Assembly (NCBI GenBank): GCA_964012805.1
Contig: CAXGUD010000057.1
Coordinates: forward strand, 1-21,617
Source of the DNA: an uncultured Bacteriovoracaceae bacterium
Lineage (GTDB): Bacteria; Bdellovibrionota; Bacteriovoracia; Bacteriovoracales; Bacteriovoracaceae
Direction: 5' to 3'
DNA: 21,617 bases
Positions 77 through 16,300 of this stretch are shown in pieces (position 1 is the first letter of the stretch; each line of letters opens with the position of its first letter). The notes under the pieces are model-generated. The model saw only the letters and a program-made list of their open reading frames with translations. It ran no database searches and was not told the origin of the DNA. Position numbers and translations under genes: made by a program.

Positions 77-904
77 ATGGACTTAGGAACAAGAGTAAAA
101 AATTTAAAAATTGAAGGGAAGAGGCTTGTCAAAAAATTTGTTGCGAGAACTGAAATTGTAGACCCTTTTAAAGTCAACTTTAAGGAGTTGGAGTTTGAGA
201 CGACGGCTTATTGCAATAGGAAGTGCACTTACTGTCCTGTAAGTATGTACCCTCGAAATGGCGATCAAGACGGCCGCTATATGAAAGAAGAGGTCTTTTC
301 GAAGCTTATTTCAGATTTAGTTGAACTTAACTATCAGGGGCTCGTCTCCCCGCATCTCTACGGAGAACCTTTAACAGACCCAAGAATCGTGGAATGGGTT
401 AAGGCCTTGAGAGATGCTTTGCCCAAAGCTCAAATTAAAGTTGTTACCAATGGAGACTACCTCAATAAAGATATATATCAAAAGCTTGTCAGCGCTGGTC
501 TAAGTTTTTTTCACCTTTCAAAACATGGCGAGTCCTTATCAAAAAGTTGTTTGGACTTGCTTGATAGTTTATCAAAGGAAGAAAAAGATCGGATGTTTAC
601 ACTCATTGACTTTTACTCTGATTTTAAAACAGATCAAACTCTGCTGAATACAAGAGCGGGGGAAGTAAAACTTAAAATTAAGAAAAAAAACCCAATTATG
701 TGCAGTTATGTAAGTTACCCAGTTCTTGATACCTTTGGAAACCTGATCCTTTGCTGCAATGATTATCATAGTGAGCACAAGTTCGGTAATATTATGGACA
801 GCAGCTTAAAAGAAATCTGGTTTTCGAAAAAAAATATTGAAACGAGAAAGAGGATTTTCAAGGGGCATTTTGATTATAAAATTTGCCAAGACTGTTATAT
901 GTAG
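77..904 (+). CDS. Radical SAM protein with C-terminal SPASM/twitch domain
   Basis: CNRKCTYC (CxxxCxxC), YGEP and VTNG motifs; C-terminal C..GNLILCCND..GNI..SLKEIW..CQDC auxiliary-cluster pattern. Confidence 0.9.
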   Translation: MDLGTRVKNLKIEGKRLVKKFVARTEIVDPFKVNFKELEFETTAYCNRKCTYCPVSMYPRNGDQDGRYMKEEVFSKLISDLVELNYQGLVSPHLYGEPLTDPRIVEWVKALRDALPKAQIKVVTNGDYLNKDIYQKLVSAGLSFFHLSKHGESLSKSCLDLLDSLSKEEKDRMFTLIDFYSDFKTDQTLLNTRAGEVKLKIKKKNPIMCSYVSYPVLDTFGNLILCCNDYHSEHKFGNIMDSSLKEIWFSKKNIETRKRIFKGHFDYKICQDCYM

Positions 905-927
905 CGCCTATTAAGGAGATACCTCTC

Positions 928-2679
928 GTGGTTTATGTTCTATCCAGGTTTTTTCAAATATACAGGTTTCAGTCTTTAGGCCTTATTTTAATTTTTCTTT
1001 TTGAAAATATTATTGAAGGTCTTGGTATTACACTTATTATACCTGTTTTTGAAAAATTATTTTCTGAAGGTACTAAGACAAACATTCTCACCAAGTTTAT
1101 TGACTCGTTTTTCTTAACGATTGGTTTTGAATCAAGTACATTTAATATTCTATTTTTAATTGTTTGCCTCTTTTCTATTAAGGCGTTTTTGATGCTTTGG
1201 GGGAGAAGAATCATTGCAAGAACTTCTAGTCGTTTCCTTCAAGATTTTCAAACAAAAAGTTTCAACGGAATGTTAGAAGCAGAGTATGCTTTTTACTTTA
1301 AAGAAAGAATCGGAGATCTTACCAACGCTTTGACTCAGGAAGTTCATAGAGCTTCAGTCTCCTTTGTTTTTGCCCTTCAATGGATATCAGTTTGCCTCTC
1401 CTTTATCCTCTACTTGGCCTTTGCTTTTTCTATTTCCGGTATGATGACAATAGGAGCTTCACTTGTCGCTGCTCTTTGCCTAAGCCCTTTAAAGTTAGTG
1501 ACTAAAAGAGTTGAAGAGTATGGAGTCAAAACGACTTTATTGAACGAAAGGCTTCAAAATGAAGTTTTAGAAATTTTTCATGGAATAAAGTTTATTAAAG
1601 GTGGGGCTTATGAGGATCTTGTAAAGAAAAGATTTTTTAAGACCGCTGAAACTTATAGATCAAATTGGGAGAATGTTTATTTCTTTTCAAATTCAATTCA
1701 TGTCTATTCTCAGCCTATTATTGTTTTGGTACTTTGTTCACTTCTTTTTGTTTCAAAAAACTTAGGACTCCCCATAGCTGAAATTATCGTTTTTTTAGTT
1801 GTCTTTCAAAGACTGCTTCCGACCTTAACAAACCTTATCAATATAAAAAATAACTTAAACGCCACATTACCAGGGTTTTCAAAAATTGACTCTATTTTGG
1901 AAAAAACTCTTTCTTTCAAAGAAAAAGATGAGGGTAGTCTCTCCGGGAATTTGAAAGGAGGTATCGAAATCAAAAATGTGTCTTTTTCATACGATAAGAA
2001 TAAGACGGTTCTTAAAAATATAGATTTAAAAATAAAGGAAGGTGAGACAATAGCCCTTCTCGGGCCTTCTGGTTCGGGGAAAACGACACTTATCGATTTG
2101 ATTTTGAAATTTTACAGGCTTCAAAGAGGGCAAATTTTGGTAGGCGGAGTTGATCTCAATGATATTAAGTTAGAAAGTTGGAGGACGCACATTTCTTATG
2201 TTCCACAGGATCCGATTCTCTTCCATGGAACAGTTTCCGAAAATATCGCATGGGGGAATTCTACCTTTTCTCAGGGAGAAATAGAAAAAGCTGCGACCTT
2301 GTCTCATGCACATGAATTTATTAAGAGTTTAAATAAGGGATACGAGACTATTGTTGGCGATAAGGGTATCAATCTTTCTGGAGGGCAGAAGCAAAGAATT
2401 GTTCTGGCAAGGGCCCTCATCAAAAAGCCAAAAATTTTAATTTTAGATGAGGCAACAAGCTCCCTTGACCACGAATCTGAATCTTTTATTAAAAACTCAA
2501 TTTCAAAGCTCAAAAGAAACAAGGATATGACAATTATTATGGTCGCTCATAGACTTACGACAGTTAAGGAAGCAGATAAAATTCACGTCTTAAAGGATGG
2601 ACTCATTCTAGAAACAGGAACTTGGGAAGAGCTTTCTACGAGTGATAAAAGTTATATTAGTGCTCATTTGACAAGCTAA
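928..2679 (+). CDS. ABC exporter, fused TMD+NBD (MsbA/PglK-like, probable lipid-linked glycan flippase)
   Basis: Hydrophobic N-terminal half; Walker A GPSGSGKTT, LSGGQKQR signature, Walker B ILILDEATS, H-loop VAHRL. In-frame GTG at 928 follows AAGGAG at 913-918 and is preferred over the ORF-track start at 883. Confidence 0.88.
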   Translation: MVYVLSRFFQIYRFQSLGLILIFLFENIIEGLGITLIIPVFEKLFSEGTKTNILTKFIDSFFLTIGFESSTFNILFLIVCLFSIKAFLMLWGRRIIARTSSRFLQDFQTKSFNGMLEAEYAFYFKERIGDLTNALTQEVHRASVSFVFALQWISVCLSFILYLAFAFSISGMMTIGASLVAALCLSPLKLVTKRVEEYGVKTTLLNERLQNEVLEIFHGIKFIKGGAYEDLVKKRFFKTAETYRSNWENVYFFSNSIHVYSQPIIVLVLCSLLFVSKNLGLPIAEIIVFLVVFQRLLPTLTNLINIKNNLNATLPGFSKIDSILEKTLSFKEKDEGSLSGNLKGGIEIKNVSFSYDKNKTVLKNIDLKIKEGETIALLGPSGSGKTTLIDLILKFYRLQRGQILVGGVDLNDIKLESWRTHISYVPQDPILFHGTVSENIAWGNSTFSQGEIEKAATLSHAHEFIKSLNKGYETIVGDKGINLSGGQKQRIVLARALIKKPKILILDEATSSLDHESESFIKNSISKLKRNKDMTIIMVAHRLTTVKEADKIHVLKDGLILETGTWEELSTSDKSYISAHLTS

Positions 2680-2690
2680 AAAGGTCTAAC

Positions 2691-4409
2691 ATGTCTAAAT
2701 TTACTGAGATATTTTTAAATAAGGAAGTCCGGCGGTGGATGGCCTACAAAGTTTTAAATCCCAAATCAAAGAGTTTTGGAAAAGAGGAAATGTGTGAGCT
2801 GCCAGAATATATGGATAAATTTAAAAGGGCCCAATTTAACTCTTTTAGTTGCAAGCTTGATTTACCATTATTATTACCATTAACATATTCTGAAAACAAG
2901 AGTGAATTTTCATATGAGTTGGCCAACGGATCTTTAATCAAAATTAACAGAGGGAATATCAAAGACCTTTTTGATGTTTACCGATCACCTGCCCTTAAAA
3001 TGGAAGATAGTGAGAATACGGCTTCTATTTATCGTTTATCAGGTCTATTAAAGCATTTGGAAAGAGATCAAACTTACGGTCCAATTGAAGAACAGGTTAT
3101 TAAAGAATGGATGACGAGTGTTTGTTCCGACAGATTGGCTTGGGAGAGCTATACGATCGCAGAAAGAATTTCAAACATCGGTCTATTTCTTTGCCGGACT
3201 CAATGTCATAAAAGATGGGACGACCGATTTAGACTTATTTTTTTCAATAAAATAATAAGAGAGGCCAAGCATATTTTTGATAACCTCGAATACTTTGGTG
3301 AAATAGTAACTTGCAACCATTACTCAAATAACGGACGAGGACTTGTTTGGGCTGGGTTTTTGACAGGACATAAGTACCTCTTAAAAGTCGGCCTTAAGAT
3401 TATGGAAAAGGAGTTTTCCCGACTCTTTAATAAAGAAGGTGAGTTTTTAGAGGGTTCTCTTCACTATTGGTGTTTAGTCCTTAGAAATTACTTTGAAGCT
3501 CTTTGGATTTCAAAAGAAAGGGGAAATTTGGACTTCGAGAACTCTTTAATTGAAAAGCTGAAATTAAGTACATCGGTTTTAAAAAAGCTGATTGTAAACG
3601 AAGATATTCCAACTATAGGAGACCTCTCTCCTGATTTTAAAAGAGAATGGCTTTCCCAGATCCCCTATTATTTTGATACCCAAGAAAAAAATGGCCATTT
3701 GTCAAAAGCGAAAGGGTGGATGTCCTCTTTTTTTGAGAACATTTATATACCAAATAACGAAGGGGCTCATTCCGGTCGTGAATTTTTTTCAATTAAAAAA
3801 GGTGATTACACCGCTTTAACACACGTGAATTCTTTTGGTTGGCCAAAATACGCCAGTCATTCCCATTGTGATTCTTTTTCTCCAGTTGTTTATTTTAAGG
3901 GAACACCCTTTCTTATAGATCCAGGAAAAAAAGATTATTTAGAGTCGAGCAAAGTTTTTGCAGGTCAATGGGCCCATAATGGACTTATTATTGACGGTCT
4001 TCCAAATGAAATTTTGGCCAGGGCAATTTATGGGTCGTCTTACATGAATAAGCGTTGCCAAGAGGGCTTCCAGGTTTGTAGTGAAGAAAACGCTCTTAAA
4101 GGAAGCTATTTTGTAAAGTCTAAAATTGAAGTAAAAAGAGAGCTTATTTTAGATGATGGTCTTATTTTAAAATTCTCACTTTTTGGTAAGGGGAAGTGCC
4201 AGATTGATATACCCTTTTATATTAACGAAGCGGTTCCTTATGAAGTGATAGGCGTAGAATCTTTTATCATAAAAAGGAAGTTCAGAAGGTTAGTTAAAAC
4301 CTGGGCCCAAGATTACGGAAAAGAGTGTAACGTGGATTCTTTTGTACTTTCAAAAAAAGTTCAACTACCTTTTCATTGCACAATTCTTCTTAAGCCTCTC
4401 ATAAGTTGA
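2691..4409 (+). CDS. Heparinase II/III-like protein (alpha-toroid plus beta-sandwich lyase-like family)
   Basis: TCNHYSNNG, EGSLHY, IGD, HSHCDSFS, LIDPG..Y and AHNGLIIDG motifs, in the order typical of glycan-cluster heparinase II/III proteins; no obvious signal peptide. Confidence 0.8.
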   Translation: MSKFTEIFLNKEVRRWMAYKVLNPKSKSFGKEEMCELPEYMDKFKRAQFNSFSCKLDLPLLLPLTYSENKSEFSYELANGSLIKINRGNIKDLFDVYRSPALKMEDSENTASIYRLSGLLKHLERDQTYGPIEEQVIKEWMTSVCSDRLAWESYTIAERISNIGLFLCRTQCHKRWDDRFRLIFFNKIIREAKHIFDNLEYFGEIVTCNHYSNNGRGLVWAGFLTGHKYLLKVGLKIMEKEFSRLFNKEGEFLEGSLHYWCLVLRNYFEALWISKERGNLDFENSLIEKLKLSTSVLKKLIVNEDIPTIGDLSPDFKREWLSQIPYYFDTQEKNGHLSKAKGWMSSFFENIYIPNNEGAHSGREFFSIKKGDYTALTHVNSFGWPKYASHSHCDSFSPVVYFKGTPFLIDPGKKDYLESSKVFAGQWAHNGLIIDGLPNEILARAIYGSSYMNKRCQEGFQVCSEENALKGSYFVKSKIEVKRELILDDGLILKFSLFGKGKCQIDIPFYINEAVPYEVIGVESFIIKRKFRRLVKTWAQDYGKECNVDSFVLSKKVQLPFHCTILLKPLIS

Positions 4410-4413
4410 TAGA

Positions 4414-4569
4414 ATGATGGTTCCCATTTAAGATCATCTCCTAATTTTACCTAGATCCAAATTGCGTATTAAAAGACTGAAAAAAGGAGTATCCAATAGG
4501 ATTGTAATGATTACTTTTGATGTAGAAATTTTTGGTTCGATGCTCCAAAAAAGAGTCTATGAAGTTTAG
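4414..4569 (+). pseudogene. Possible N-terminal remnant of a polysaccharide deacetylase-like gene
   Basis: ATG at 4414, 4 nt after the upstream stop; in-frame TAA at 4429; frame continues ...NRIVMITFDVEIFG... to TAG at 4567-4569. TFDVE resembles CE4/NodB-like motif 1. Confidence 0.25.
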
Positions 4570-5615
4570 ATAAACTCAAACTTCATAGGTGTTCCCTTTT
4601 TCACCTCTTTTTTGACTTTTTGACCGATAAGCCTTTCGTAGTGCTTTGGAGGAAGGCCAAAGCCAGGTCTGATGCACCTTAGGTTTTTCTCAGTCAAAAT
4701 ATCCCCAGCTTTAAGGTCATCACAAATGTAAATAGATCTTCTAAAGGCCTTTGATTTTTCTTCATTTTTAGCACAGCCGTAAGTAACTTGACCAAGTGAT
4801 TGCCATGCTCTTTCCGTTTCTATGACGAGGCTTTTAAGCTCAGCTGGCTCCAGAGAAAAGGCTGAGTCGACTCCACCTTCGGCCCTGGAAAGGGTAAAGT
4901 GTTTTTCGACGACTGTCGCCCCAAAAGCAACTGAAGCACAGGCTACGCCAATACCCATAGTGTGGTCTGAAAGGCCCACTTGAACACCAAAGAGCTCCCT
5001 CATATGTTTAATAGTCGAAATATTTGTATTGGAAGGGTCTGCTGGATAAGTACTGGTACATTTTAAAAGGATAATGTCTTTGCAACCATTGTTTCGTGCT
5101 GTTTTGACACTCAATTCAAGTTCCGATACTGAGGCCATACCAGTAGAAATAATCATTGGTTTTCCGGTTTGAGCAACCTTTTTAATAAGAGGAATGTCGG
5201 TGTTTTCAAAGGAAGCTATTTTATAAAAGGGGACTTCTAACTCTTCAAGAAAATCTACAGCAGTTGTATCAAACGGGGTTGAAAAACAAAGGACATTTCG
5301 CTTTTTACAATGGTCAAAGATGGCCTTATGCCATTCCCAAGGAGTATGGGCCTCTTCATAAAGCTCATAAAGACTCCGCCCTTTCCAAAGGCTTTTATCA
5401 TCATTGATATAAAAATCGCCCTCAGTAATATCAAGGGTCATGGTTTCCGCTTTATAGGTTTGGATTTTAAGGGCATCGACACCTGAATCAGCGGCAGCAT
5501 CAATAATTTGAAGGGCCCTCTCCAAAGATTGGTTATGATTTCCAGACATTTCTGCAATTATGAAGGGTCTATGATTTTGTCCAATCCATTTACCGCCAAC
5601 TTTTATGTCTTTCAT
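4566..5615 (-). CDS. pseI: Pseudaminic acid synthase (NeuB family with C-terminal SAF/antifreeze-like domain)
   Basis: PFIIAEMSGNHNQSLERA, KIQTY, AHTPWEWH, KIASFE, LKCTSTYPA, GLSDHT, EKHFTL and IRPGFGL. Start at 5615 preferred: AAGGA SD lies 8 nt upstream and overlaps the alternative ATG at 5624. Confidence 0.88.
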   Translation of the reverse strand: MKDIKVGGKWIGQNHRPFIIAEMSGNHNQSLERALQIIDAAADSGVDALKIQTYKAETMTLDITEGDFYINDDKSLWKGRSLYELYEEAHTPWEWHKAIFDHCKKRNVLCFSTPFDTTAVDFLEELEVPFYKIASFENTDIPLIKKVAQTGKPMIISTGMASVSELELSVKTARNNGCKDIILLKCTSTYPADPSNTNISTIKHMRELFGVQVGLSDHTMGIGVACASVAFGATVVEKHFTLSRAEGGVDSAFSLEPAELKSLVIETERAWQSLGQVTYGCAKNEEKSKAFRRSIYICDDLKAGDILTEKNLRCIRPGFGLPPKHYERLIGQKVKKEVKKGTPMKFEFI

Positions 5616-5650
5616 GGCCCACATCCTTTCTTGTTTGTTAAAGATGAATA

Positions 5651-5680
5651 ACGATATAAAGATTTTTAAGGGATTGTCAT
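5651..5680 (-). promoter_or_regulatory. Putative sigma70 promoter for pseI
   Basis: On the minus strand ATGACA (5680-5675), 18-nt spacer, TATCGT (5656-5651), about 35 nt upstream of the start. Confidence 0.3.
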
Positions 5681-5845
5681 GTCATATTCTAAAAATTGAG
5701 GGAGCGTTTTTTACTAACACTTTGCGTTTCATTAGGGCACTGGTGACCACTATCACTTACCTCAGGGAATAGATTTGACCTTCGATTGAATCATCATGTA
5801 GCTTACTTATTGGACTTAAATATTTTTTATATCTTTGTGAAAATT

Positions 5846-6565
5846 ATGGAACAAGAACTCACCCTATCATCGAAGATATCTATTGCCTTGGAAAAGTCTT
5901 CTGACTTCGAGTCTCGTATTGAAAAGTTTAGTGAAAAAATTGATATTTTCTGGAATCAAGAAAAAAGAAAAAAGAATTTGACCAATGGAAGCCTTTTAAA
6001 CTTTTCATCCCTTTCTCAAGTGGGGGATTCTCTTGAAATTAAGGCCTATTTTGTTGAATACAAGCATTTTTTGTTTCAAAGAAATATGGGTGAAAACCTT
6101 TTGATAAATCCTATAGGTGTTAGCGGAATCGCTTTGCAGAATAAAGGTCATAAAGGGCATTTCTTGGTGGGAAGGCGGTCTAACTCCGTGACCCAGTATC
6201 CAGAGCATTATGAATTTATTCCTTCAGGATCGATAGAGGTTGATGCTCAAAAAAATGGGATGGTTGATTATAAAAAACAGCTTATCAAAGAGTTGAAAGA
6301 GGAGTCGGGGTTAACGGAAAAAAATATTAAGTCCGTTCATGAACTCTGTTTAATTTATGATAAACTGGATCGGGTTTACGATATAGGAATTTGCGTGGAG
6401 CTAAAAGAAGCAGAGCTTTCCCTAAACCCAGAATTGAGTGAATATAAGGGAATTAGTATTCAAACACCCAGTTCTATTGAAAAAACATTTTCTAGAGAGG
6501 ACGTTGTTCCGACGAGTAAATTATTATTTCAGGCATTCAAAATGTCGTCTCAAAAAAGGAAATAA
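5846..6565 (+). CDS. NUDIX-family hydrolase (NUDT22-like, possible NDP-sugar pyrophosphatase)
   Basis: PIGVSG..FLVGRRS..YPEHYEFIPSGSIE..LIKELKEESGL, a Nudix box with an insertion. ATG at 5846 is more plausible than TTG at 5786. Confidence 0.72.
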   Translation: MEQELTLSSKISIALEKSSDFESRIEKFSEKIDIFWNQEKRKKNLTNGSLLNFSSLSQVGDSLEIKAYFVEYKHFLFQRNMGENLLINPIGVSGIALQNKGHKGHFLVGRRSNSVTQYPEHYEFIPSGSIEVDAQKNGMVDYKKQLIKELKEESGLTEKNIKSVHELCLIYDKLDRVYDIGICVELKEAELSLNPELSEYKGISIQTPSSIEKTFSREDVVPTSKLLFQAFKMSSQKRK

Positions 6566-6568
6566 TTT

Positions 6569-7528
6569 GTGGCAAAAGATGAAAGCGGTTTGAACAACTT
6601 TCGAATGGGCCTTTACGAGGAAATGCGTTTTATAAGGTCATTTGAAGAAAACCTCTTAAAACTTTTTGATGAGGGGCTTCTTTTTGGAACAACCCATACC
6701 TCGATTGGGCAAGAGGCCCTTGCGGTTTCTCTTTCAAGAGTCACAAGAGAAGAAGACATCATTTTTTCTAACCACCGGTGCCATGGACATTACTTGGCAT
6801 GCCGTAAAAATCCGAAGGCCCTTTTACATGAAATTATGGGGCGCCAAGGAGGTGTGTGTGAAGGGTATGGTGGGAGCCAACATATCTATGACAGAAATTT
6901 TTATTCAAATGGTATCCAAGGTGGCTATGTTCCTATTGTGGCAGGAATGGCCCTCGCTGAAAAAGTGAAAAGGACTCAAAATATTGCGGTAGGACTTATC
7001 GGCGACGGCACCCTTGGCGAGGGTTTGGTCTACGAGGGTCTTAACCTGATGTCTATTTTGGAAACCCCTTCTCTTATTATCGTTGAAAATAATCAGTATG
7101 CTCAGTCAACTCCAACGAAAAGAACGACGGGTGGTCAAATTATAGACCGGGCGAAGGCCTTTGGAATATCATGTTTTGAAACGGATCACCATGATGTCTT
7201 GGCAATCCATAATCATTTGGAAAAAGCGGCCATTCAGGTGAGAGAAGAGAAGCGTCCCTTTGTTTTTGTCCACCATACGTACCGCCTTGGACCTCATAGC
7301 AAAGGTGATGATGACCGTCCACTAGATGAAATCGAAAAGTGGAAAAAAGTCGATCCTCTTAAATTGTTAGAGGAGAGTTTAAGGGCAGAAGATGTCGAGC
7401 AGGTTAAAAACAGGATTGCCACGGAGATCGGAAAAATGACCGATGAGGCAAAAAATGCAAAGCTTGCTGAACTCAAAAATGAATTCTCAAAGGATACCTT
7501 GTGGAAAGAAGATACGTTCAAGCTTTAA
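6569..7528 (+). CDS. TPP-dependent dehydrogenase E1 component, alpha subunit-like
   Basis: GQEA, NHRCHGH, GGSQH, TPP-binding GDG...ENNQYA, and YRLGPHS loop; GTG start 3 nt after the upstream stop. Confidence 0.92.
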   Translation: MAKDESGLNNFRMGLYEEMRFIRSFEENLLKLFDEGLLFGTTHTSIGQEALAVSLSRVTREEDIIFSNHRCHGHYLACRKNPKALLHEIMGRQGGVCEGYGGSQHIYDRNFYSNGIQGGYVPIVAGMALAEKVKRTQNIAVGLIGDGTLGEGLVYEGLNLMSILETPSLIIVENNQYAQSTPTKRTTGGQIIDRAKAFGISCFETDHHDVLAIHNHLEKAAIQVREEKRPFVFVHHTYRLGPHSKGDDDRPLDEIEKWKKVDPLKLLEESLRAEDVEQVKNRIATEIGKMTDEAKNAKLAELKNEFSKDTLWKEDTFKL

Positions 7529-8517
7529 ATGAATCTCTCTTTAAGCTTATGGAGGATCAGGAAGAAACCTTTGTTATTGGGGAGGATATTTTGGATCCTT
7601 ACGGTGGTGCCTTTAAGGTGACCAAGGGGTTGTCCACTAAATTTCCTGAAAGAGTTATTTCAACACCTATAAGCGAAGCTGGGATTACAGGGCTTGCAAC
7701 AGGTCTTGCCCTAAGAGGTTTTAAACCTATTGTAGAAATTATGTTTGGAGATTTTGTAACATTAATAGCCGATCAACTTGTCAATCATGCCTGTAAGTTT
7801 AAGTGGATGTATAATGATCAAGTTGATGTACCCCTTATTATCCGAACCCCTATGGGTGGAAGGAGGGGGTATGGCCCAACTCATAGTCAGACTCTAGAGC
7901 AGATGTTTTTGTCGGTGCCTCAGTTAAAAATTGTGGCCCCATCTCACCTACATGATCCAGGTGCTCTTTTGTATAAGGCCTCTAAAAGTGAGAAGACACC
8001 TCTTCTTTTTATTGAGAATAAACTTCTTTATTCTCAAAAAATAAGGCAAGGAAACAGATACAAGGATTTTTTCATTAAAGAAGAGACCGGTCCGACAGGA
8101 CACTCGACAGTGCTTGCCTCCCTTGTTCCTTTTGACGAACCGGCGGATGTCGCCCTTATTTGTTATGGAGGAATGACTCCTTTGGCACTCGAAGCTTCCT
8201 TTGAACTTTTTATGGAGGAAGAAATTGTGGTTAATGTCATCGTTCCTTCACTCATCAACCCAATCCCTATTGAGGATATTTTGAAACTAAATGGTGGAAC
8301 GGATAAAATCGTGATTTGTGAAGAAAGTAACTCAAATGGTGGTTGGTCAGGGGAATTGTCATCTCAACTATACTTTTCTCTTTTTAAAAAGTTAGATAAG
8401 CAAATTCAGAGAGTCGGAGCAAGGCCTATCCCTATTCCTTGCTCAAAGCATCAAGAGGAAATCATTCTTCCGCAATTACCAGATATTATTTCAGCAGTTA
8501 AAAAGGTTTTGAGGTAA
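7501..8517 (+). CDS. TPP-dependent dehydrogenase E1 component, beta subunit-like
   Basis: GEDI..YGGAFKVTKGL, TPISEAGITG, VEIMFGDF, DQLVNHA and HSQ motifs; GTG start after AAGGA; overlaps E1alpha by 28 nt. Confidence 0.92.
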   Translation: MERRYVQALNESLFKLMEDQEETFVIGEDILDPYGGAFKVTKGLSTKFPERVISTPISEAGITGLATGLALRGFKPIVEIMFGDFVTLIADQLVNHACKFKWMYNDQVDVPLIIRTPMGGRRGYGPTHSQTLEQMFLSVPQLKIVAPSHLHDPGALLYKASKSEKTPLLFIENKLLYSQKIRQGNRYKDFFIKEETGPTGHSTVLASLVPFDEPADVALICYGGMTPLALEASFELFMEEEIVVNVIVPSLINPIPIEDILKLNGGTDKIVICEESNSNGGWSGELSSQLYFSLFKKLDKQIQRVGARPIPIPCSKHQEEIILPQLPDIISAVKKVLR

Positions 8518-8520
8518 TCA

Positions 8521-9630
8521 ATGAAATACAACGAAATTAAAGTTCCCCAACTAGGTGTTAATGATGATTTTGTTATTTTAAATAATTATCTTTTTCAGGA
8601 AGGGGATAAGGTAACAACGGATGAGATCGTTGCAATTGTTGAATCAACGAAAATGAGTATCGATATCAATACAGATCATGGAGGTCACTTTTTTCCTCTT
8701 TGTGAAGAGGGCGCCGAAATAAAGGTAAACGAACCATTGGGCTATATTTTTGAAACAATGGAAGAGTTAAATCACTTCAAGGCAAGTTACACTTCACCTA
8801 AAGAGTCCTCTCCTCTAGAAGAAAAAGGTGTTTCTAGTGGAAAAGTAACCAAAAAGGCAAAAGAATTGCTTAAAAGACATTCCTTGAGTTTAGAGGATAT
8901 TAAGCCTGAGTCAGGAATTTTAAGAGAAAAGGATGTTTTAAACTTTCTTGCATCAAAAAATACCGATGTTAAGTTTCCCGAATATCAAAAAGATAGGGAA
9001 CAAGTTGTCATTTTTGGTTGTGGCAAAGGTTCCCGGACAGTTATGGAAACATTATCTACAAACCAATCGTATCAGGTCGTTGGTTTTATTGTCGATAGGG
9101 CAGACCCCCCAGAAGGGATAGATGGCCTTCCTGTCTTCAACCTCCCTGATTATGAATTTTTAAAAAGCAAAGAAATTTCTACAGTGGCCCTTGCCATTAC
9201 AAACTCCTTAGAGCGTTTGGATATATTTAGAAAATTGGTAAAGAGTGGATTTAAGGTGATCAATGCCATTCATAAATTGGCCTATGTTTCTCCAACGGCA
9301 TCTTTGGGCCAGGGAAACCATGTTAAGGCCGGTGCAATCATTGACACCAATTCAAAGATTTCTGATGCCTGTATTATTGATAATAACGTGACAATACCTC
9401 ATGACAATATTGTTAAAGAGGGTGCTCACCTCGCTCCAGGCGTAACTTTGGGGAGTAGTATCACTATAGGAAAAAATGCCATCGTGGGGATTGGCTCCAG
9501 TATTTCTTCTGGAGTTGTGGTCGGTGACTTTTCTGTTGTTTCGGTAGGGTCTTCTGTTACCACAAATGTTGAGCAGAATTCAGTTGTTGAAGGAGTCCCA
9601 GGAAAGGTTATAGGGATGACTAAAAAATGA
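8521..9630 (+). CDS. Fusion of lipoyl-carrier domain, peripheral subunit-binding-like domain and NeuD/PglD-type hexapeptide sugar acyltransferase
   Basis: aa 1-77 EIKVPQLG..EGDKV..VESTKM (Lys44); aa 109-143 VTKKAKELLKRHSLSLEDI..GILREKDVLNFL; aa 161-369 VIFGCG, AITN..R, NAIH, hexapeptide repeats with PHD..HLAPG and GVPGK. GAGGT SD upstream. Confidence 0.85.
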   Translation: MKYNEIKVPQLGVNDDFVILNNYLFQEGDKVTTDEIVAIVESTKMSIDINTDHGGHFFPLCEEGAEIKVNEPLGYIFETMEELNHFKASYTSPKESSPLEEKGVSSGKVTKKAKELLKRHSLSLEDIKPESGILREKDVLNFLASKNTDVKFPEYQKDREQVVIFGCGKGSRTVMETLSTNQSYQVVGFIVDRADPPEGIDGLPVFNLPDYEFLKSKEISTVALAITNSLERLDIFRKLVKSGFKVINAIHKLAYVSPTASLGQGNHVKAGAIIDTNSKISDACIIDNNVTIPHDNIVKEGAHLAPGVTLGSSITIGKNAIVGIGSSISSGVVVGDFSVVSVGSSVTTNVEQNSVVEGVPGKVIGMTKK

Positions 9631-10265
9631 CGGCACATATTTTTTTAGATTTTGATGGAACCCTCATTGACTCCCTCGACTCTCTTTATAAAGCTTATTT
9701 AGGAATTCTCAATCAATTTGGAATCGAAGGAAGTCGTGTTGAATTTGATCTTCTAAATGGGCCATCCATTTGGGAGGTCACTCTTTATCTTAAAAAAAAA
9801 TATGGGATTGAAAGAGAAGCGGAAGAAATTTATAAAATGTACAATGAGATCATAAAGAGAAAATACTTAGATTCCAAACCCTTTTCCGATTCAGTTCTCT
9901 TTTTGGAAAAGCTCAAAAACTTAGGTGTTAAATCCTCTTTAGTAACGTCAGGATCAGAAGACCTTGTTGGCGATCTTCTAAAAAGATTGGACTGGTCAAA
10001 ATATTTTCAATTTATTGTCTATGGAACTGAAGTTAAAGAGTCAAAGCCAAGCCCTCTCATTTACCTTAAGGCCTTGGAGCTTTCAAAGGCCAGAAAAGAA
10101 AAGGTAATAGTTGTGGAAGATTCCAAAAATGGAATTAAGGCTGCCATAGGAGCGGGCCTTAAAGTTTACGGATTGGAGTCTTATCACACTTCTAACGAAC
10201 TCAAAGAAGCAGGCGCACATAAAACTATCGAAAAGATTTCTTCACTAATTCCTGAGTTAAACTAA
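9627..10265 (+). CDS. HAD-superfamily subfamily IA phosphatase (CbbY/beta-PGM-like)
   Basis: DFDGTLIDS, VTS, KPSP and VVEDSKNG motifs; ATGA overlap with the upstream gene. Confidence 0.88.
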   Translation: MTAHIFLDFDGTLIDSLDSLYKAYLGILNQFGIEGSRVEFDLLNGPSIWEVTLYLKKKYGIEREAEEIYKMYNEIIKRKYLDSKPFSDSVLFLEKLKNLGVKSSLVTSGSEDLVGDLLKRLDWSKYFQFIVYGTEVKESKPSPLIYLKALELSKARKEKVIVVEDSKNGIKAAIGAGLKVYGLESYHTSNELKEAGAHKTIEKISSLIPELN

Positions 10266-10844
10266 TAAGTCATTTAAAAAGCTTGAAGTCCTGTCAACAC
10301 TATTGCCTTGAGGTCCTGTGAGGAATTGCTCATAAAATTCGTTTGACACTCGAGGCTTTTTAAAAAATTGAGAGCTTGATCCTTCCTGGCAAAGTTCGTT
10401 TATATCTTGCAAAAAATGATCAGGTGTACGTGATATAAAGACTCTTTTTTCTAAAAGCGTTTCACAGGATGCTCTTAGTTTTATGGCCCTTGAGTCAGTT
10501 AGGAGAAGTATTGGAGCTTTGGTCGCAATAACTTCACAAAGGGTGGTACTTGGAAACTCGAGTATAAAGACATCCATTTTTTTCATAATATTTGAAAGCT
10601 TTGCTTTAGAGGAATAAAAAATACCTCCTTTTTCAGGAATAGACTTCTCCAAACCTGTACCAAAGTTTTCGAAATCGTAACCACTTTTAAAGTGGAGTTT
10701 AATTTTATCTTTGTTTTCAAAGTATTTAACGGCTTTATATCGAATGTCCAAAGTAGAGGCACTATCGTAGGCTCCAAACCTCCAAAGAACAAAAATGTCT
10801 CCTATAGGTCCACAAATGTAGCAGATATTAAGTTTTGATTTCAC
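10257..10844 (-). CDS. Hypothetical protein resembling the C-terminal Rossmann domain of a GT-B-like glycan transferase
   Basis: MDVFILEFPSTTLCEVIATKAPILLL resembles the D..I...ST...EA....P pattern of GT-B C-domains; GTG start with GAGGA SD, GTGA overlap with the upstream ORF. Confidence 0.55.
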   Translation of the reverse strand: MKSKLNICYICGPIGDIFVLWRFGAYDSASTLDIRYKAVKYFENKDKIKLHFKSGYDFENFGTGLEKSIPEKGGIFYSSKAKLSNIMKKMDVFILEFPSTTLCEVIATKAPILLLTDSRAIKLRASCETLLEKRVFISRTPDHFLQDINELCQEGSSSQFFKKPRVSNEFYEQFLTGPQGNSVDRTSSFLNDLLV

Positions 10845-12079
10845 ATTAAATCCTCAAAATAGGCAGAGCCGGTGACCACATTATTTGCTGAATAAGTTGG
10901 AAATATTTCTTTGGTTTCATCTACAAAGTCTTTCACAAGTTCGCTATAGATGAGGTAATGGGAGTTTTCTTTATTTTTTAAGTTTCTTGTGCAAACTGGA
11001 GATGGAGAAAGACCATCCAATAAGCCTACCGTACCTCCATGAAGGGCCAGGACGCTCTGGATGCCTTCTCTGTCTGCGAGGTAAAACATGAGGTCTGTTT
11101 CAGTGAGTGAGTCAGTTGTAAACATTAACTTGAATTTAAATTTTTTATTAAGAGCTTTGAAAGTCTTCGCTAAGCCGCTCATTTTTTCTAGGTCTTCAAA
11201 AATAACTTTTTTAATAAGAGGCTCAAAAAGGGGAAGGAAGTTAACACCTTCTTTTAAAGTCCAAGGATGGCCATCTAGTTTAGTCATTAAATCCTTAAGG
11301 AGTTCATTTTTATCAACGGATAGGGAGCCTTTTTTTAAAAAAGGTACATCTTGCCAATAGAAAAATTCCAAATTTTTATTTTTTTCTTTTAAGGCCTTTA
11401 ATATTTTTTGTTTACCAAATGAATGACTGAAAACCAGCACCCATTTTTTTCTACTAAAAGGGAAGCTGAGAAAAGACGAAAAAAATGACGTATAACTTTT
11501 CCATTTCCGGTCTCTAAGGATGAATCTAAAAAAATTTTTGATGAAGCTTCGCGGGTAATACCAATAGGGAAAGGTCAAATCAAGCTGATGTTTTTGAGGC
11601 TTGCTTTTAATGATTTCTTCTAAATTGAGTTTTTCTTTAAATAGGGAGCAGAGAGTGTAAAAGGTATTTACTTCTTTTTTACCGTCAAAGGTGTAATAAA
11701 CTTTTTCTTCGAAATGGTCTCTCACTATTTTGAGTTTATTAAGTTCATTAATGGCCCTATAAAAGGGGAACCTCAAAGAATGAAGGCGTGCCGTAAAGGG
11801 CCAAATTTGTTCCTTTTCAAATTTTGGAATCTTTTGGTGAATAATTTTATCTGCATCATGGCACCATGAATAGAGTCCCTTTAATTTTTCATACTCTTTA
11901 TCAATTTTTACTTCCTCTTCTTTTTTGGAAATGTCTGAAAGGGTAAGGTAAGGGAGTTTTTTGTTTCTTAAAAAAATGACAGCTTCAGTTGTCCATGCAA
12001 ACAAAGCGTCAATTCCTGGCCTATAGTGAGGTTCAAAAGATTCAAAGTCAGAAGCGCCATGGACGATAAAGCATTGCAT
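10841..12079 (-). CDS. Hypothetical glycan-biosynthesis protein resembling the N-terminal part of a GT-B-like transferase
   Basis: Ends with GIQSVLALHGG..YLIYS..VVTGSAYFEDL, resembling the (Q)HG / vtGspxfd pattern of capsule and sialyl-type transferases. ATG at 12079 avoids overlap with the upstream gene (ORF-track start 12124). Confidence 0.5.
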   Translation of the reverse strand: MQCFIVHGASDFESFEPHYRPGIDALFAWTTEAVIFLRNKKLPYLTLSDISKKEEEVKIDKEYEKLKGLYSWCHDADKIIHQKIPKFEKEQIWPFTARLHSLRFPFYRAINELNKLKIVRDHFEEKVYYTFDGKKEVNTFYTLCSLFKEKLNLEEIIKSKPQKHQLDLTFPYWYYPRSFIKNFFRFILRDRKWKSYTSFFSSFLSFPFSRKKWVLVFSHSFGKQKILKALKEKNKNLEFFYWQDVPFLKKGSLSVDKNELLKDLMTKLDGHPWTLKEGVNFLPLFEPLIKKVIFEDLEKMSGLAKTFKALNKKFKFKLMFTTDSLTETDLMFYLADREGIQSVLALHGGTVGLLDGLSPSPVCTRNLKNKENSHYLIYSELVKDFVDETKEIFPTYSANNVVTGSAYFEDLM

Positions 12080-12101
12080 AGTTATACTCTCGGTATCTAT
12101 C

Positions 12102-13226
12102 TTAAAAGCAAGTGGAAAGGTCAATGCACTTGGTTTTAGTTTTCGTTTTCATTATTTCAAAAATATCCTTATAAACAAAGAGCAGGTAATCCAGTGAGTA
12201 TTCATCAATTTTGTTTGGGGGAAGAATTTCCATTCGATTTTTCCCAATGGCGAGCCCATGTTTTAAGGTATCTCTGTCAAAGCAGACCGAGCAAAGCTCA
12301 TTAAGAATTGGATAATTGGCAATGAAAAGGTTTGTACTTCCTCCAGCTCCATAAAGACCTATCTTCTTATTTTTGTAAGGGCCTAAAAGCTGGTTAATTT
12401 TTTGTGTCGTTTTTTGGATGTTTTCTTTATAGGACTCCACAATTTGCCTCGCTTTTTTGACAGGAGGCGCAGGCAGGACAGGCTTACTTGAACTTTTTTT
12501 GAAAATAAAGTGCATACAGAAATTCTCTCTTTCACTTGCAATGTACTCAAGTCCAAGAGAAGTAAAAGCATAGTGGAAAAATTCGAAATGGAAGCAGTTA
12601 ATATGTTCATGAAAAACACTATAATAGGGTCTTTTTTCTACAACGGCTTCAATGTCAGGGACCTCTATAATTAAAAAACCATCTTCTTCAAGAAGCTCAG
12701 AGATTTTTTCAAGGGCAGGACGGGGGTTATTTAGATGTTCTGCACAGTGATAAGAAAAAATAAGGTCAAATTTTTTATTTTTAAATGGGTATTGTACAAA
12801 GTCACCTTCAATAAAATGATCGACCATCTCTTTTGATTTGTCACAAACATTAAAATCAACAATGGTAGTTTCGAGTTTTGATTGGGGGAGTTGAAAGAAA
12901 ATTGAATTAACCCCTCCTCCAACATCTAAGGACTTAAGGTCTTTTCGTATTGAGTCCCCAATATGCGTTTGAAGGAATTTTATACGCCTTTCATGTATTG
13001 TGGGAATATCTTGAATAAAGACGTAGTTCTCATATAAAGATGAAATGAACTCATCCGTCATATCTTGAAGCTGAAGATGCCCGCATGTCTCACAGAGGTA
13101 GAGCTCACCTTCTTGATAGAGAGGGTCCTCTTTTTTGGATGGCCAAATATATGTTGGGAGTTTCTCAGTTGTAAAAACCTTTTTTACATTTTTTTCATAG
13201 CACCAACGGCAGCGGCTAAGGCCCAT
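12102..13226 (-). CDS. Class I SAM methyltransferase with N-terminal Zn-binding and C-terminal C-methyltransferase-type domains (NDP-sugar C-methyltransferase-like)
   Basis: CRWC..CETCG, LDVGGG, FDLIFSYHCAEH, IEVPD, FHEHINCF and IGLYGAGG; ATG at 13226 with AGGGG SD. Confidence 0.78.
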   Translation of the reverse strand: MGLSRCRWCYEKNVKKVFTTEKLPTYIWPSKKEDPLYQEGELYLCETCGHLQLQDMTDEFISSLYENYVFIQDIPTIHERRIKFLQTHIGDSIRKDLKSLDVGGGVNSIFFQLPQSKLETTIVDFNVCDKSKEMVDHFIEGDFVQYPFKNKKFDLIFSYHCAEHLNNPRPALEKISELLEEDGFLIIEVPDIEAVVEKRPYYSVFHEHINCFHFEFFHYAFTSLGLEYIASERENFCMHFIFKKSSSKPVLPAPPVKKARQIVESYKENIQKTTQKINQLLGPYKNKKIGLYGAGGSTNLFIANYPILNELCSVCFDRDTLKHGLAIGKNRMEILPPNKIDEYSLDYLLFVYKDIFEIMKTKTKTKCIDLSTCF

Positions 13227-13355: not shown

Positions 13356-16300
13356 TTATTGCAAGTAATGAACGCCTTCACTCTTTTTTGAAGAGGAATT
13401 GAGATAAACTCCATTTAAAAAAGCTGAGGCGAGTTCGGTATTTGTGATGAGAGGACAGTTGTACTTAATAGCAATTTTCCTAATTTCCTTTCCAAAGTTA
13501 AACTTTTTTGGAAGGTCTTTACCAATCAAATTAATGACTAGGTCGATTTTTTTATTCTCCAAATCTTTAGAGAGTTTATCCAGTTGGTCCTTGTTTTCTT
13601 CAACCTCTTTGAACTCTGCATTGTTAAGGAAATCTTTTTTTATTTTAAAGTTGGTTGTGACAGGTAAACCTAGGTGAAAAGACTTATCTATAATTTTTCG
13701 GGTAAGAGGGTTTCCTTCCTGGCCTTCTGAAATGATTAAAATTCCCTTTTTAGGCTTTTTAAGGCCTACTGACTCTGTTGAGAGGAGTAAAGAGTTTTCT
13801 AAGCTCTCAGAAATACAGCCCACTTCACCCGTTGAGGACATTTCGACCCTTAATTTAGGGTCAACCCCATCAAGTCTATTAAAGCTAAACATAGGAGATT
13901 TGACACCGACTCTCTCTTTATTTTTAATCGTTATATCGTTTGAAGAAAAGCTAGTCCCAAGCAAAATTTTTGTTGCAATTTTTGCTAAGTTTACTCCAGA
14001 GACTTTAGAAACAAAGGGAAAAGACCTTGAGGCCCTGGCATTGCACTCTATGACCTTAACTTGGCCACCTTTAACAAGAAATTGAATATTAAAAGGGCCG
14101 TTAAGGTTTAAAGACCTAACTATTTTTGATCCATAGTCTTTGGCCTTTTTTAATTGATGAGGCTCAATGGTTTGGGTTGGATAAACTATAGTTGCATCTC
14201 CAGAGTGAACACCAGCTTTTTCGAGGTGTTCGGAAAAAATGGCAATAACAACCTCTCCCTTTTTAGCAACTCCATCAAGTTCAACTTCCTTAGCTCCTTC
14301 AATAAATTTTGTCAGGAGGACTGGATGTGATTTAGAAACTTTTCCCGCTTTGACTAAAAAGTCTTCCAGTTGAGCTCTATTATGGGCCACTTTCATTGAA
14401 GTTCCCGAAAGAACGAAGCTAGGTCTCACTAAAATAGGAAAACCAATACTTTTTAAAAAATTATCAACTTCGTGAATATCATTTGCTGAGATGAATTCAG
14501 GCTGGTCAACTTCCAAACCTCTTAATATGTTGGAAAAGACCACTCTTCCCTCTGCTCTTCTTATGCTTTCTATGCTGTGACCTATTATGGGAAGACCATT
14601 TTTATTTAAAGTTTCGGCCAGGCAATTAGGCAACTGTCCGCCCATACAGACGATGGCACCATTAAAGTTTTCATAGTCTGAAATATCTAAAATTCTTTCT
14701 AAAGTGAGCTCTTCAAAATAAAGTCGGTCTGCAGCATTAAAATCGGTAGAAACCGTTTCAGGGTTACAGTTTATAATTATACTCTTTATATTTTCTTGCC
14801 TAATAGCTTCAGAGCAAGTGACCGCACACCAATCAAATTCAACACTGCTTCCGATCCTGTAGGCTCCACCACCAAGCAAAAGGTAAGATTTTTCATCTCG
14901 AAAGAACTCAACGTCGGACTCTTCACCAAAATAAGTAAAATAAATATAGTTTGAGGGGGCCAAAAACTCCCCTGCGGTTGTATCAATTTTTTTGGCAAAG
15001 GGAAAAACTTCAAGTTGTTTTCTATAATTTCTAAGGGCGTTTCGGAAGCTGCCTAGGTCAATGTGATCATCGTAGTAGGGGGCTTTTTGGGTTTGAAGGT
15101 TTACAATTTGGAGGTCTGAAAAACCCGCCTGCTTCCATTTTTTAAGGGTTTCTTTATTTATAGATTTTAGGAAAACTTGGTATTCAGCGTTTGATTTGAA
15201 GGCCTTTCCTAATGCAGAGTTTGAAATACTTTTTTCAATTTTTGTAAGGTCGCTTATCTCACAAAGAAACCATTTATCGATAAAAGAAGAATTTGAAACG
15301 TCTTCTAAACTGTGGCCTCTTCTAAAGGCTTCAAAGATTTTTAAAATGCGGTCAACGGTAGGAGTTGCAATGTCTTCTAGTATATTATTCGTATTCGAAT
15401 AGGTGTGATCCAATGAAAAAATATGTTCATTTTCATGAACCATTCGTAGGGCCTTTTGGACAACTTCTTTGAAAGAGCGACCGATGGCCATAATTTCACC
15501 GACCGACTTCATCGTTGTTCCAAGGCAGTCTGAAACACCAACAAACTTTTTAAGGTCCCACTTAGGTAATTTCAAGGCCACGTAGTCAAGGGAAGGTTCG
15601 AAAAGGGCAGATGTTGTTTTTGTAACAGGATTTTTTAATTCGAGTAGGTTATATCCTATAGAAACTTTAGTCGAAAGGTAAGCAATGGGATAACCAGAAG
15701 CTTTACTGGCCAGAGCACTCGATCGAGATAACCTGGCATTAACCTCGATCACGTAGAAGGCCTTAGAAAATGGATCAAGAGCAAATTGAACATTACACTC
15801 ACCGACAATCTTTAGGTGGTTAACAATATTCAGCGAAGTTGATCTTAGGAGCTGATATTCTTCGTCGGTTAAGGTTTGGCTAGGGCATATAACAATGGAA
15901 TCTCCTGTATGGACTCCAAGGGGGTCGAAGTTTTCCATATTACAAATAGTAATGGCGTTCCCTTCACCGTCCCTCATTACTTCATATTCAACTTCCTTCC
16001 AGCCAAATAAGGACTTTTCTAATAATATTTGTGAAGAAGAGGAGAGTGCTTTTGTTGCTAATTTTTTGAGTTCCTCTTCTGAGTGGACAACACCACTTCC
16101 TAGGCCACCGAGTGCAAAAGCGGACCTCACAAGAAGAGGGAAACCTATTTCTTTTGCTGCCGAGAGGGCCTTTTCCAAAGTCGTTGCTGCAATACTTGGA
16201 ACGACTGGGATTTTGAAGTCCGTCATGAAATTGGCAAAGAGTTCCCTATCTTCTGTTAAGTTGAAGGTAGGTAGTGGTGTTCCTAGATTGCAAATATTGT

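Follow-up and report, generated by a model that had tools for sequence, protein, structure and literature searches.

In the 2-oxoacid dehydrogenase complexes, of which the pyruvate dehydrogenase (PDH) of G. stearothermophilus is an example, a thiamine diphosphate (ThDP)-dependent E1 of alpha and beta subunits is paired with an E2 protein that has a lipoyl domain with a conserved lysine, a flexible linker, a peripheral subunit-binding domain (PSBD) and a chloramphenicol-acetyltransferase-like catalytic core (PF00198, motif DHRxxDG). The output is acyl-coenzyme A (acyl-CoA). The sugar acyltransferases PglD, PerB, VioB, PglB-ATD and NeuD are made of a PglD_N domain and a hexapeptide beta-helix, and acetyl-CoA is their donor. 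Here we describe a locus in which parts of the two systems are combined. The stretch analysed, called the window below, is the entire 21,617-base contig CAXGUD010000057.1 (C57) of an uncultured Bacteriovoracaceae bacterium (genome GCA_964012805.1; 4.47 Mb in 130 contigs, scored 100% complete). It carries a three-gene module in the order E1alpha-E1beta-"E2", in which the third gene encodes a fusion protein whose E2 core is replaced by a PglD-type beta-helix with its nucleotide-sugar domain. The features of the module are these:

6569..7528, plus strand: E1alpha, the ThDP-binding subunit, of a dedicated clade (PF00676 E1_dh, 183 bits)
7501..8517, plus strand: E1beta of the dedicated clade (Transket_pyr PF02779 and Transketolase_C PF02780)
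8521..9630, plus strand: fusion protein of 369 residues, with a lipoyl domain, a linker, a PSBD-like segment and a PglD/PerB-type N-acyltransferase (Pfam, AlphaFold2 (AF2) model, Foldseek)
8521..8751, plus strand: lipoyl domain, residues 1-77 (PF00364, 35.2 bits; beta-sandwich with a predicted local distance difference test score (pLDDT) of 86-97)
8650-8652, plus strand: codon of the presumed lipoyl-lysine, K44, within VESTKMS
8836..8970, plus strand: PSBD-like segment, residues ~106-150 (conserved residues, helices in the model)
8998..9627, plus strand: PglD_N nucleotide-sugar-binding domain and left-handed beta-helix acyltransferase, residues 160-369 (TIGR03570, match to PerB, Foldseek)
9400-9402, plus strand: codon of the catalytic His294 (alignment with PerB)

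The likeness to PDH extends to the catalytic residues of E1, to the lipoyl lysine and the linker, to a PSBD predicted to sit on the C-terminal domain of E1beta and, presumably, to reoxidation of the arm by lipoamide dehydrogenase (Lpd, the E3 component). Unlike PDH, the module has no E3 in its operon, its E1 forms a separate clade with the motifs GGSQH and GYGPTHSQ, and its output is probably an acylated sugar. With PglD, PerB, VioB, PglB-ATD and NeuD it shares the domain make-up and an aligned catalytic histidine; it differs from them in the fused lipoyl and PSBD-like parts, in the dedicated E1 and in the proposed donor, a dihydrolipoyl thioester. Transfer of a thioester from the flexible arm of a carrier protein to a UDP-sugar is known for the left-handed beta-helix acyltransferases LpxA and LpxD, although there the carrier is an acyl carrier protein (ACP) with phosphopantetheine and no ThDP enzyme takes part. 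The nearest analogue is QncN/QncL/QncM. It and the SclQ1-4 system provide the glycolyl unit of quinocarcin and scleric acid; in them an E1-like ThDP enzyme is described as charging a lipoyl domain for biosynthesis, away from central metabolism, so that a glycolyl thioester is formed, a normal E2-type acyltransferase domain comes after the lipoyl domain, and the acceptor is an ACP (PMC6335953). In our module the transferase is a beta-helix enzyme, there is no room for an ACP gene within the block at 5786-10265, and the proposed acceptor is a sugar.

We think it rather probable that E1 loads an acyl group derived from a 2-oxoacid on the lipoyl group of K44 and that the beta-helix domain transfers it to a 4-amino UDP-sugar. 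All computational tests able to overturn this reading turned out in its favour. The module would then be a three-protein acylation machine with the design that 2-oxoacid dehydrogenase complexes have in their front half. The dedicated E1alpha2beta2 would decarboxylate a 2-oxoacid, or cleave a related ThDP substrate, and reductively acylate the lipoyl group, the fusion being tethered to E1beta through its PSBD-like segment. The fusion is probably trimeric, and its swinging arm would bring the acyl thioester to its own beta-helix domain. There the 4-amino group of the nucleotide sugar, activated by His294, would accept the acyl group, a step that normally belongs to PseH. A lipoamide dehydrogenase encoded elsewhere would reoxidise the arm, and the product would be pseudaminic acid with an N7 acyl group from the 2-oxoacid. 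The parts are all of known kinds. As far as we found, the combination of a lipoyl arm, a beta-helix sugar acyltransferase and an E1 clade of its own is undescribed: a search of PubMed Central open-access papers and bioRxiv, which leaves subscription journals uncovered, gave no description of a sugar acyltransferase module fed by lipoyl and E1.

The fusion protein and its family

A preliminary description, made from the sequence alone, had placed a protein with a lipoyl-type domain, a linker and a PSBD-like segment in the E2 position behind E1alpha and E1beta, and had taken its catalytic domain to be replaced by a complete NeuD/PglD-type beta-helix. Domain searches and modelling bear this out. 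Pfam recognizes Biotin_lipoyl at residues 4-76, PglD_N at 161-239, and Hexapep; within the fusion there is no match to 2-oxoacid_dh (PF00198) and no "DHR" string. The AF2 model, built on 27 relatives (mean pLDDT 90.5), has a beta-sandwich at 1-77, a disordered linker at 94-106, two PSBD-like helices at 111-119 and 136-149 (pLDDT ~83), and a PglD fold at 160-369. G12, E41, K44, G55, H294 and G335 are invariant in all 27 aligned fusions. In the PSBD-like segment, T110, A113 and D138 are conserved in at least 90% of them, and a basic C-terminal tail, GxRK, is conserved across the alignment. Two relatives, P0109 and the fusion of locus L013, match PF02817 E3_binding itself.

The best Foldseek matches are all N-acetyltransferases of 4-amino sugars (PerB, PglB-ATD, PglD and VioB). 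The first of these is PerB (4ea7; TM 0.94 by target, root-mean-square deviation 1.6 Å), which is also the best solved match by sequence (89.8 bits). His294 aligns with the PerB position that is mutated in the H141N and H141A entries (4eaa, 4eab).

The fusion is not a one-off. A search over 5.8 billion clustered proteins gave 145 matches; among the 120 of them that were listed, at least 101 clusters at 90% identity, P0005 of the window included, carry PF00364 together with PF00132. These 101 are 324-400 residues long and 30-53% identical. At source, relatives of the fusion are labelled "NeuD family sugar O-acyltransferase" or "biotin/lipoyl-containing protein", and about 100 clusters carry such labels. 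A search for longer fused forms returned a single 747-residue metagenome protein, P0140, without an E1 part, and forms fused to E1 may be rare. P0140 has the lipoyl domain and the beta-helix in its first half and ~370 more residues without a Pfam match.

Gene linkage was followed with a 10-row fusion alignment, which was run over contigs of one genome per species (14 loci) and over metagenome contigs (44 loci). One of these loci, L031, is the window's own sequence; the other 57 were examined. A full-length fusion match is present in 36, and in 28 of the 36 E1alpha and E1beta are directly adjacent, upstream in 21 and downstream in 7. Seven lie on contigs too short to judge, and one (L006) has no E1 within 8 kb. 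The divergent fusion of L013, the one with an E3_binding match, has no E1 nearby. In the genomes of these two loci, G005 and G012, a module-type E1beta is encoded elsewhere (365.7 and 297.4 bits), and a profile search finds such an E1beta in all 13 fusion-bearing genomes. The linkage to E1 is thus conserved.

The module is widespread in uncultured phyla. It occurs in Pseudomonadales, Synergistia, Omnitrophota, Magnetococcales, Planctomycetales, Saganbacteria, Hydrogenedentes, Nitrospiraceae and Vulcanimicrobiota, in all in at least eight phylum-level lineages. Its arrangement varies. L003 has a split form, with a free PglD-type enzyme (TIGR03570, 177 bits), E1alpha, E1beta and a free lipoyl-PSBD protein of 145 residues, and in L010, L011, L012 and L061 E1alpha and E1beta are fused to one another. 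A lipoyl domain, fused or free, is present with every module.

Beta-helix proteins of a second lipoyl-fused family, 506-515 residues long, are encoded in L002 (5753-7288), L037 (1234-2754) and L038 (10369-11916). They have an N-terminal lipoyl domain, a SucB-like linker and a hexapeptide domain resembling WcaF and maltose O-acetyltransferase. The PglD-type fusion is present in these clusters too, with a single E1 pair for both.

The dedicated E1 and the lipoyl arm

That the E1 motifs deviate from the housekeeping ones, as had been noticed at the outset, is confirmed by alignment. GGSQH of E1alpha aligns with GGSMH of human PDH E1alpha, its closest solved structure (129.7 bits), and G(G/S)SQH is found in all 26 family E1alpha. 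The E1beta motif RRGYGPTHSQ has its counterpart in other sequences in the aligned solved E1beta chains; AAQHSQ, the housekeeping form named for comparison, is seen in some paralogues of other genomes, next to GGPFHSE and variants. All 28 family E1beta have GYGP(T/A)HSQ, 27 with T and one with A. On the family profile the E1beta of the window scores 532 bits, its paralogues at most 238. The E1 is also set apart by phylogeny. A maximum-likelihood tree was built from 29 E1beta of the 13 genomes, 13 of them module copies and 16 paralogues. All the module copies fall together (support 97/92), and a core of 12 (100/100) stands on a long stem apart from the paralogues. E1alpha comes nearest to the PDH-type models and stays far under their cut-offs (232.9 bits on TIGR03182, cut-off 393.85), which suggests that the substrate is small but not necessarily pyruvate.

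The residues expected of an E1 that serves a lipoyl group are in place. The ThDP motif GDG...ENN and the loop histidine of YRLGPHSKGDD (HSKGDD) are conserved in 26 of 26 family E1alpha, the histidine aligning with that of human YRYHGHSMSD. In E1beta the activating E59 is conserved, as are F82, F85 and H128, the last within GYGPTHSQ; E59 and H128 are invariant (19/19). In the relevant passage on G. stearothermophilus E1p, His128beta and His271alpha are proposed to drive acetyl transfer to the lipoyl dithiolane (PMC2663715). Since both of the histidines implicated in transfer are kept, our E1 looks built to load a lipoyl arm, and not merely for carboligation.

Docking of the fusion on E1 was modelled with two E1beta chains and fusion residues 98-158, next to three controls. 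The predicted complex has an ipSAE of 0.66, against 0.10 for the best control; 116 of 157 solved complexes attained this mark, as did 2 of 215 mismatched pairs. At least 92% of contacts are common to the runs, and the partner has a pLDDT of at least 71. The predicted contacts are between fusion residues 106-113 and 130-136 and E1beta residues 189-241 of the C-terminal domain, the invariant Glu241 included. The segment thus looks like a PSBD, a likeness from which actual binding does not follow.

The means of lipoylation are at hand. In L007 (Saganbacteria) a gene for an LplA-type lipoate-protein ligase (PF21948, 89.5 bits; TIGR00545, 76 bits) lies between E1alpha and E1beta, and the genome of the window encodes LipA, with a gene of the LipB/LplA type adjoining it. 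These findings bear on a different use of the E1 pair. In antibiotic sugar pathways, the E1-like pairs AviB1/AviB2 and AlmDI/DII add a two-carbon branch, and here too a ThDP-dependent carboligation on a keto-sugar could be imagined, with the lipoyl-PSBD part as a mere scaffold. PseB, whose product in this pathway is a 4-keto sugar, would provide a substrate. A scaffold, however, does not account for an invariant lipoyl lysine, for a ligase gene embedded in one locus, for the retention of both transfer histidines, or for a lipoyl domain with every module. We regard this use as highly improbable.

As for reoxidation, the preliminary description had found no E3 in the window and had assigned the task to a housekeeping enzyme. 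Contig C57 indeed has no lipoamide dehydrogenase; the genome has two copies, on C61 and C16, each beside a canonical E2. An Lpd match with E<=1e-30 is found in each of the 12 other module-bearing genomes (G001-G012), over the cut-off in 11. Such genomes are not always equipped with an E2. No E2 catalytic domain was found in five of the 12, one of them a complete 3.36-Mb chromosome, and canonical E2 therefore cannot pass acyl-lipoyl to CoA there. All five have GcvH and a lipoate ligase. Judged by their gene content, the sole acyltransferase travelling with the arm in these five would be the beta-helix domain.

Pseudaminic acid genes, the acceptor and the acyl group

The window contributes one gene of pseudaminic acid synthesis, divergent from the block that includes the module:

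4566..5624, minus strand: PseI, pseudaminic acid synthase (TIGR03586, 507.7 bits, cut-off 340.25)

PseB and PseC of the same genome are at the end of contig C72. A PseF of the TIGR03584 type was not found anywhere in this genome. In other loci (L001-L004, L006-L009, L035, L038, L039, L046, L049 and L053) the module is surrounded by PseB, PseC, PseG, PseI and a PseF-like cytidylyltransferase. PseI-like genes, counted together with any Pse gene, are beside the module in 14 of the 28 E1-adjacent loci. In L038, L039 and L053 a PseG over the cut-off directly precedes E1alpha, and in L038 and L039 PseI follows the fusion, so that the module stands in the place of PseH. PseH is a GNAT enzyme that normally acetylates the PseC product with acetyl-CoA. 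The module would resemble it in the site of reaction as well as in cluster position; the fold is unrelated. PseH itself (TIGR03585) is not found over its cut-off in 11 of the 13 module-bearing genomes, and its best match in the window's genome has 32.7 bits against a cut-off of 93.1. Since PseB, PseC and PseI are present and the relatives of the beta-helix are N-acetyltransferases, the 4-amino group of the PseC product, UDP-4-amino-4,6-dideoxy-beta-L-AltNAc, is most likely the acceptor here.

The transferase might instead act late and on oxygen in the manner of NeuD, O-acylating the finished nonulosonic acid or some other glycan hydroxyl. Relatives labelled "sialic acid O-acetyltransferase NeuD family" at source would agree with this, as would the WcaF- and maltose-O-acetyltransferase-like character of the second lipoyl-fused family (L002, L037, L038), and GNAT genes kept in some loci might be divergent PseH. 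The closest solved relatives, however, are all N-acetyltransferases of 4-amino sugars, PseH is missing from 11 of the 13 genomes, and a location between PseG and PseI is that of PseH. O-acylation seems to us improbable on this balance, and we return to acylation of the 4-amino group.

Two other NeuB-family synthases, 37-38% identical to PseI, are encoded on contigs C103 and C115 of the genome, and one of them is followed by a stand-alone PglD-like gene.

Which acyl group is transferred can be discussed by analogy. Three extra genes and a redox cycle seem needless when acetyl-CoA is at hand, and it is on this ground that a group other than acetyl is argued for; acetyl would be a rather unlikely choice. 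Glycolyl is a tentative candidate, because a glycolyl thioester is what the one E1-lipoyl pair described in biosynthesis, outside central metabolism, produces. That the group is something other than these two is a possibility we would put just short of an even chance. From Tannerella forsythia UB4 a possible N-glycolyl legionaminic acid is reported, with no enzyme assigned (PMC5378307).

Two pointers to hydroxypyruvate were considered and set aside. Divergently beside PseB-PseC on C72 (G000:C72:7739-10963, locus L030) there are genes for a phosphoglycerate-dehydrogenase-like 2-hydroxyacid dehydrogenase, an unannotated protein of 505 residues and a second HAD hydrolase; they are not conserved in other module loci. 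Xylose-isomerase-like TIM barrels in L002, L034 and L035 were tried as hydroxypyruvate isomerases, and they have only weak NCBIfam matches of the nuclease/CbiR type.

A bolder version of the proposal is that the lipoyl domain is a true acyl carrier for beta-helix transferases, in a CoA-free relay from ThDP through lipoyl to a sugar amine that would handle acyl groups without a common CoA form. We find this version doubtful, though worth stating. The most attractive candidate for its acyl group would be glycolyl from hydroxypyruvate or a ketose phosphate. If it is true, bacteria, anaerobes included, would be able to make N-glycolyl nonulosonic acids without oxygen.

Genes for PIG-L family de-N-acetylases are repeatedly seen next to the module, in L002 (7420-7962), L036 (1802-2512), L037 (2757-3458), L053 (15091-15807) and L054 (2401-3090). 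Their recurrence suggests that the sugar loses the 2-N-acetyl group it first carried and receives another in its place. The WcaF-like second family by such deacetylases suggests further that one arm feeds several transferases, which would re-acylate both amino groups. Module-bearing Pse clusters also contain B12-binding radical SAM enzymes (L003:3633-5078, L004:184-1893, L007:971-2548 and 4844-6217, L039:2903-4267), which suggests that the sugar, or the acyl group on it, is in addition C-methylated. In L035 the module is followed by genes for an FkbH-domain protein (TIGR01686, 306.8 bits) and a MaoC-SDR fusion (7453-9240 and 6120-7439), and this cluster may therefore also make a glyceryl-type unit.

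A number of observations count against transfer from a lipoyl arm to the 4-amino sugar, and they are of several kinds. The domain anatomy, the conserved catalytic residues, the gene linkage, the E1 clade and the missing PseH and E2 cores are observed; lipoylation of K44, its acyl loading, direct transfer from arm to sugar, the acceptor and the acyl group are what we infer. The fusion scores 154.9 bits on TIGR03570, just under the cut-off of 160.8. The docking pass may reflect the memory of the model for E1-PSBD complexes already solved (1w85), to which ours is alike. The incompleteness of metagenome-assembled genomes weakens the absence calls in G001-G012. Transcription of the block is weakly hinted at by thin evidence: in one metatranscriptome run, two 151-nt contigs are identical to positions 9459-9609, the end of the fusion gene, and 9623-9773, the start of the HAD gene; in another run a single contig falls inside PseI. 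PseH over its cut-off is present in two of the 12 other genomes (G002 and G012), in both away from the module, and GNAT genes beside the module in L007, L008 and L035 have 23-28 bits on PseH or no NCBIfam match. The module need not, therefore, always replace PseH. The pseudaminic-type acceptor of the preliminary description stands where Pse genes surround the module. It does not extend to the subclade with fused E1 (L010, L011, L012, L061), where the flanks have other glycan genes and no Pse gene, and where the acceptor must accordingly differ from a Pse precursor.

The remaining point concerns CoA. The beta-helix domain is a complete PerB/PglD fold, enzymes of this kind bind acyl-CoA (4ea7, 3bsy and 4m99 entries), and CoA could still serve as donor or shuttle. 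The domain, or CoA bound to it, would take the acyl group from the arm to make acyl-CoA and then acylate the sugar, the fusion serving to channel an unusual acyl-CoA. The crystallisation of relatives with CoA or acetyl-CoA is consistent with this, as are the conserved basic tail GxRK and the fact that the block encodes no other enzyme able to make the acyl-CoA. Yet there is no E2 catalytic domain in the block, nor anywhere in five of the 12 other genomes, and in L003 the free lipoyl-PSBD protein behaves like a carrier for a separate PglD. We know of no description of thiol-to-thiol transfer for a PglD-type beta-helix. All in all, the involvement of CoA appears unlikely, and direct transfer from the arm to the sugar is the reading that we retain.

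The question matters for several reasons. Flagellar function, the antigenicity of the cell surface and recognition by phages or the immune system all depend on the N-acyl groups that pseudaminic and legionaminic acids carry. Few of the enzymes that put non-acetyl groups on these acids are known, and knowledge of modifying enzymes of this kind is described as scarce (PMC5378307). If the proposal is true, the lipoyl swinging arm has a new use outside central metabolism and a well-studied transferase fold has a new type of donor. The E1 partners, which score highest on PDH models though under their cut-offs, could mislead metabolic reconstruction of uncultured phyla that have no E2 core. The three-gene module could also serve in the glyco-engineering of nonulosonic acids.

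The gene block and its surroundings

The module is part of a block of five tightly spaced genes on the plus strand (5786-10265). The two genes outside the module are:

5786..6565, plus strand: Nudix-like protein, perhaps a UDP-sugar pyrophosphatase, the first gene of the block; the start is probably the ATG at 5846
9627..10265, plus strand: HAD-IA phosphatase, the start overlapping the stop of the fusion gene (ATGA) (PF13419, 123.9 bits)

Three bases separate the Nudix-like gene from E1alpha (6565/6569), E1alpha and E1beta overlap by 28 bases (7501-7528), three bases separate E1beta from the fusion (8517/8521), and the fusion and HAD genes share the ATGA at 9627-9630. Scans of 4300-10900 gave counts of promoters and terminators that are not above those of shuffled sequences (16 vs 15.2 and 8 vs 6.1, respectively). 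The stretch recurs in near-identical form in marine or seawater metagenome runs of several studies, and two of the runs span the whole of 4400-10900.

The Nudix-like protein has no Pfam match over threshold (NUDIX, E=0.15). An Atlas structure search leads to NUDIX clusters (TM 0.76/0.89) and to a 448-residue cluster that contains a HAD domain. A homologue is at the same position in L001, and homologues of the HAD gene come directly after the fusion in L001 and L005. PseG was not found in the window's genome or in G001, the two genomes with both flanks, whereas the loci with PseG have neither a Nudix-like nor a HAD gene. It is a nearly even guess, from these two genomes only, that the Nudix-like and HAD proteins replace PseG, converting the UDP-sugar to the sugar 1-phosphate and this to the free sugar.

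Before PseI, positions 77-4409 of the plus strand encode a radical SAM/SPASM protein, an ABC exporter and a heparinase II/III-like protein; a relative of the exporter is also at the edge of L039 and L053. Behind the block, on the minus strand at 10257-12124, two genes encode proteins of 195 and 427 residues without a family in Pfam or NCBIfam. The Atlas matches of the larger one are unnamed clusters, and there is a weak lead to PF27859 LIC12162. Further on, at 13356-17728 of the minus strand and 18565-20436 of the plus strand, the window has a divergent CarA/CarB pair, the second of the genome, which shares 32-37% identity with the one on contig C9; adjoining it are a NodU/CmcH-type carbamoyltransferase and an SxtJ-like small protein. 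This pair looks like a private supply of carbamoyl phosphate for O-carbamoylation of a glycan.

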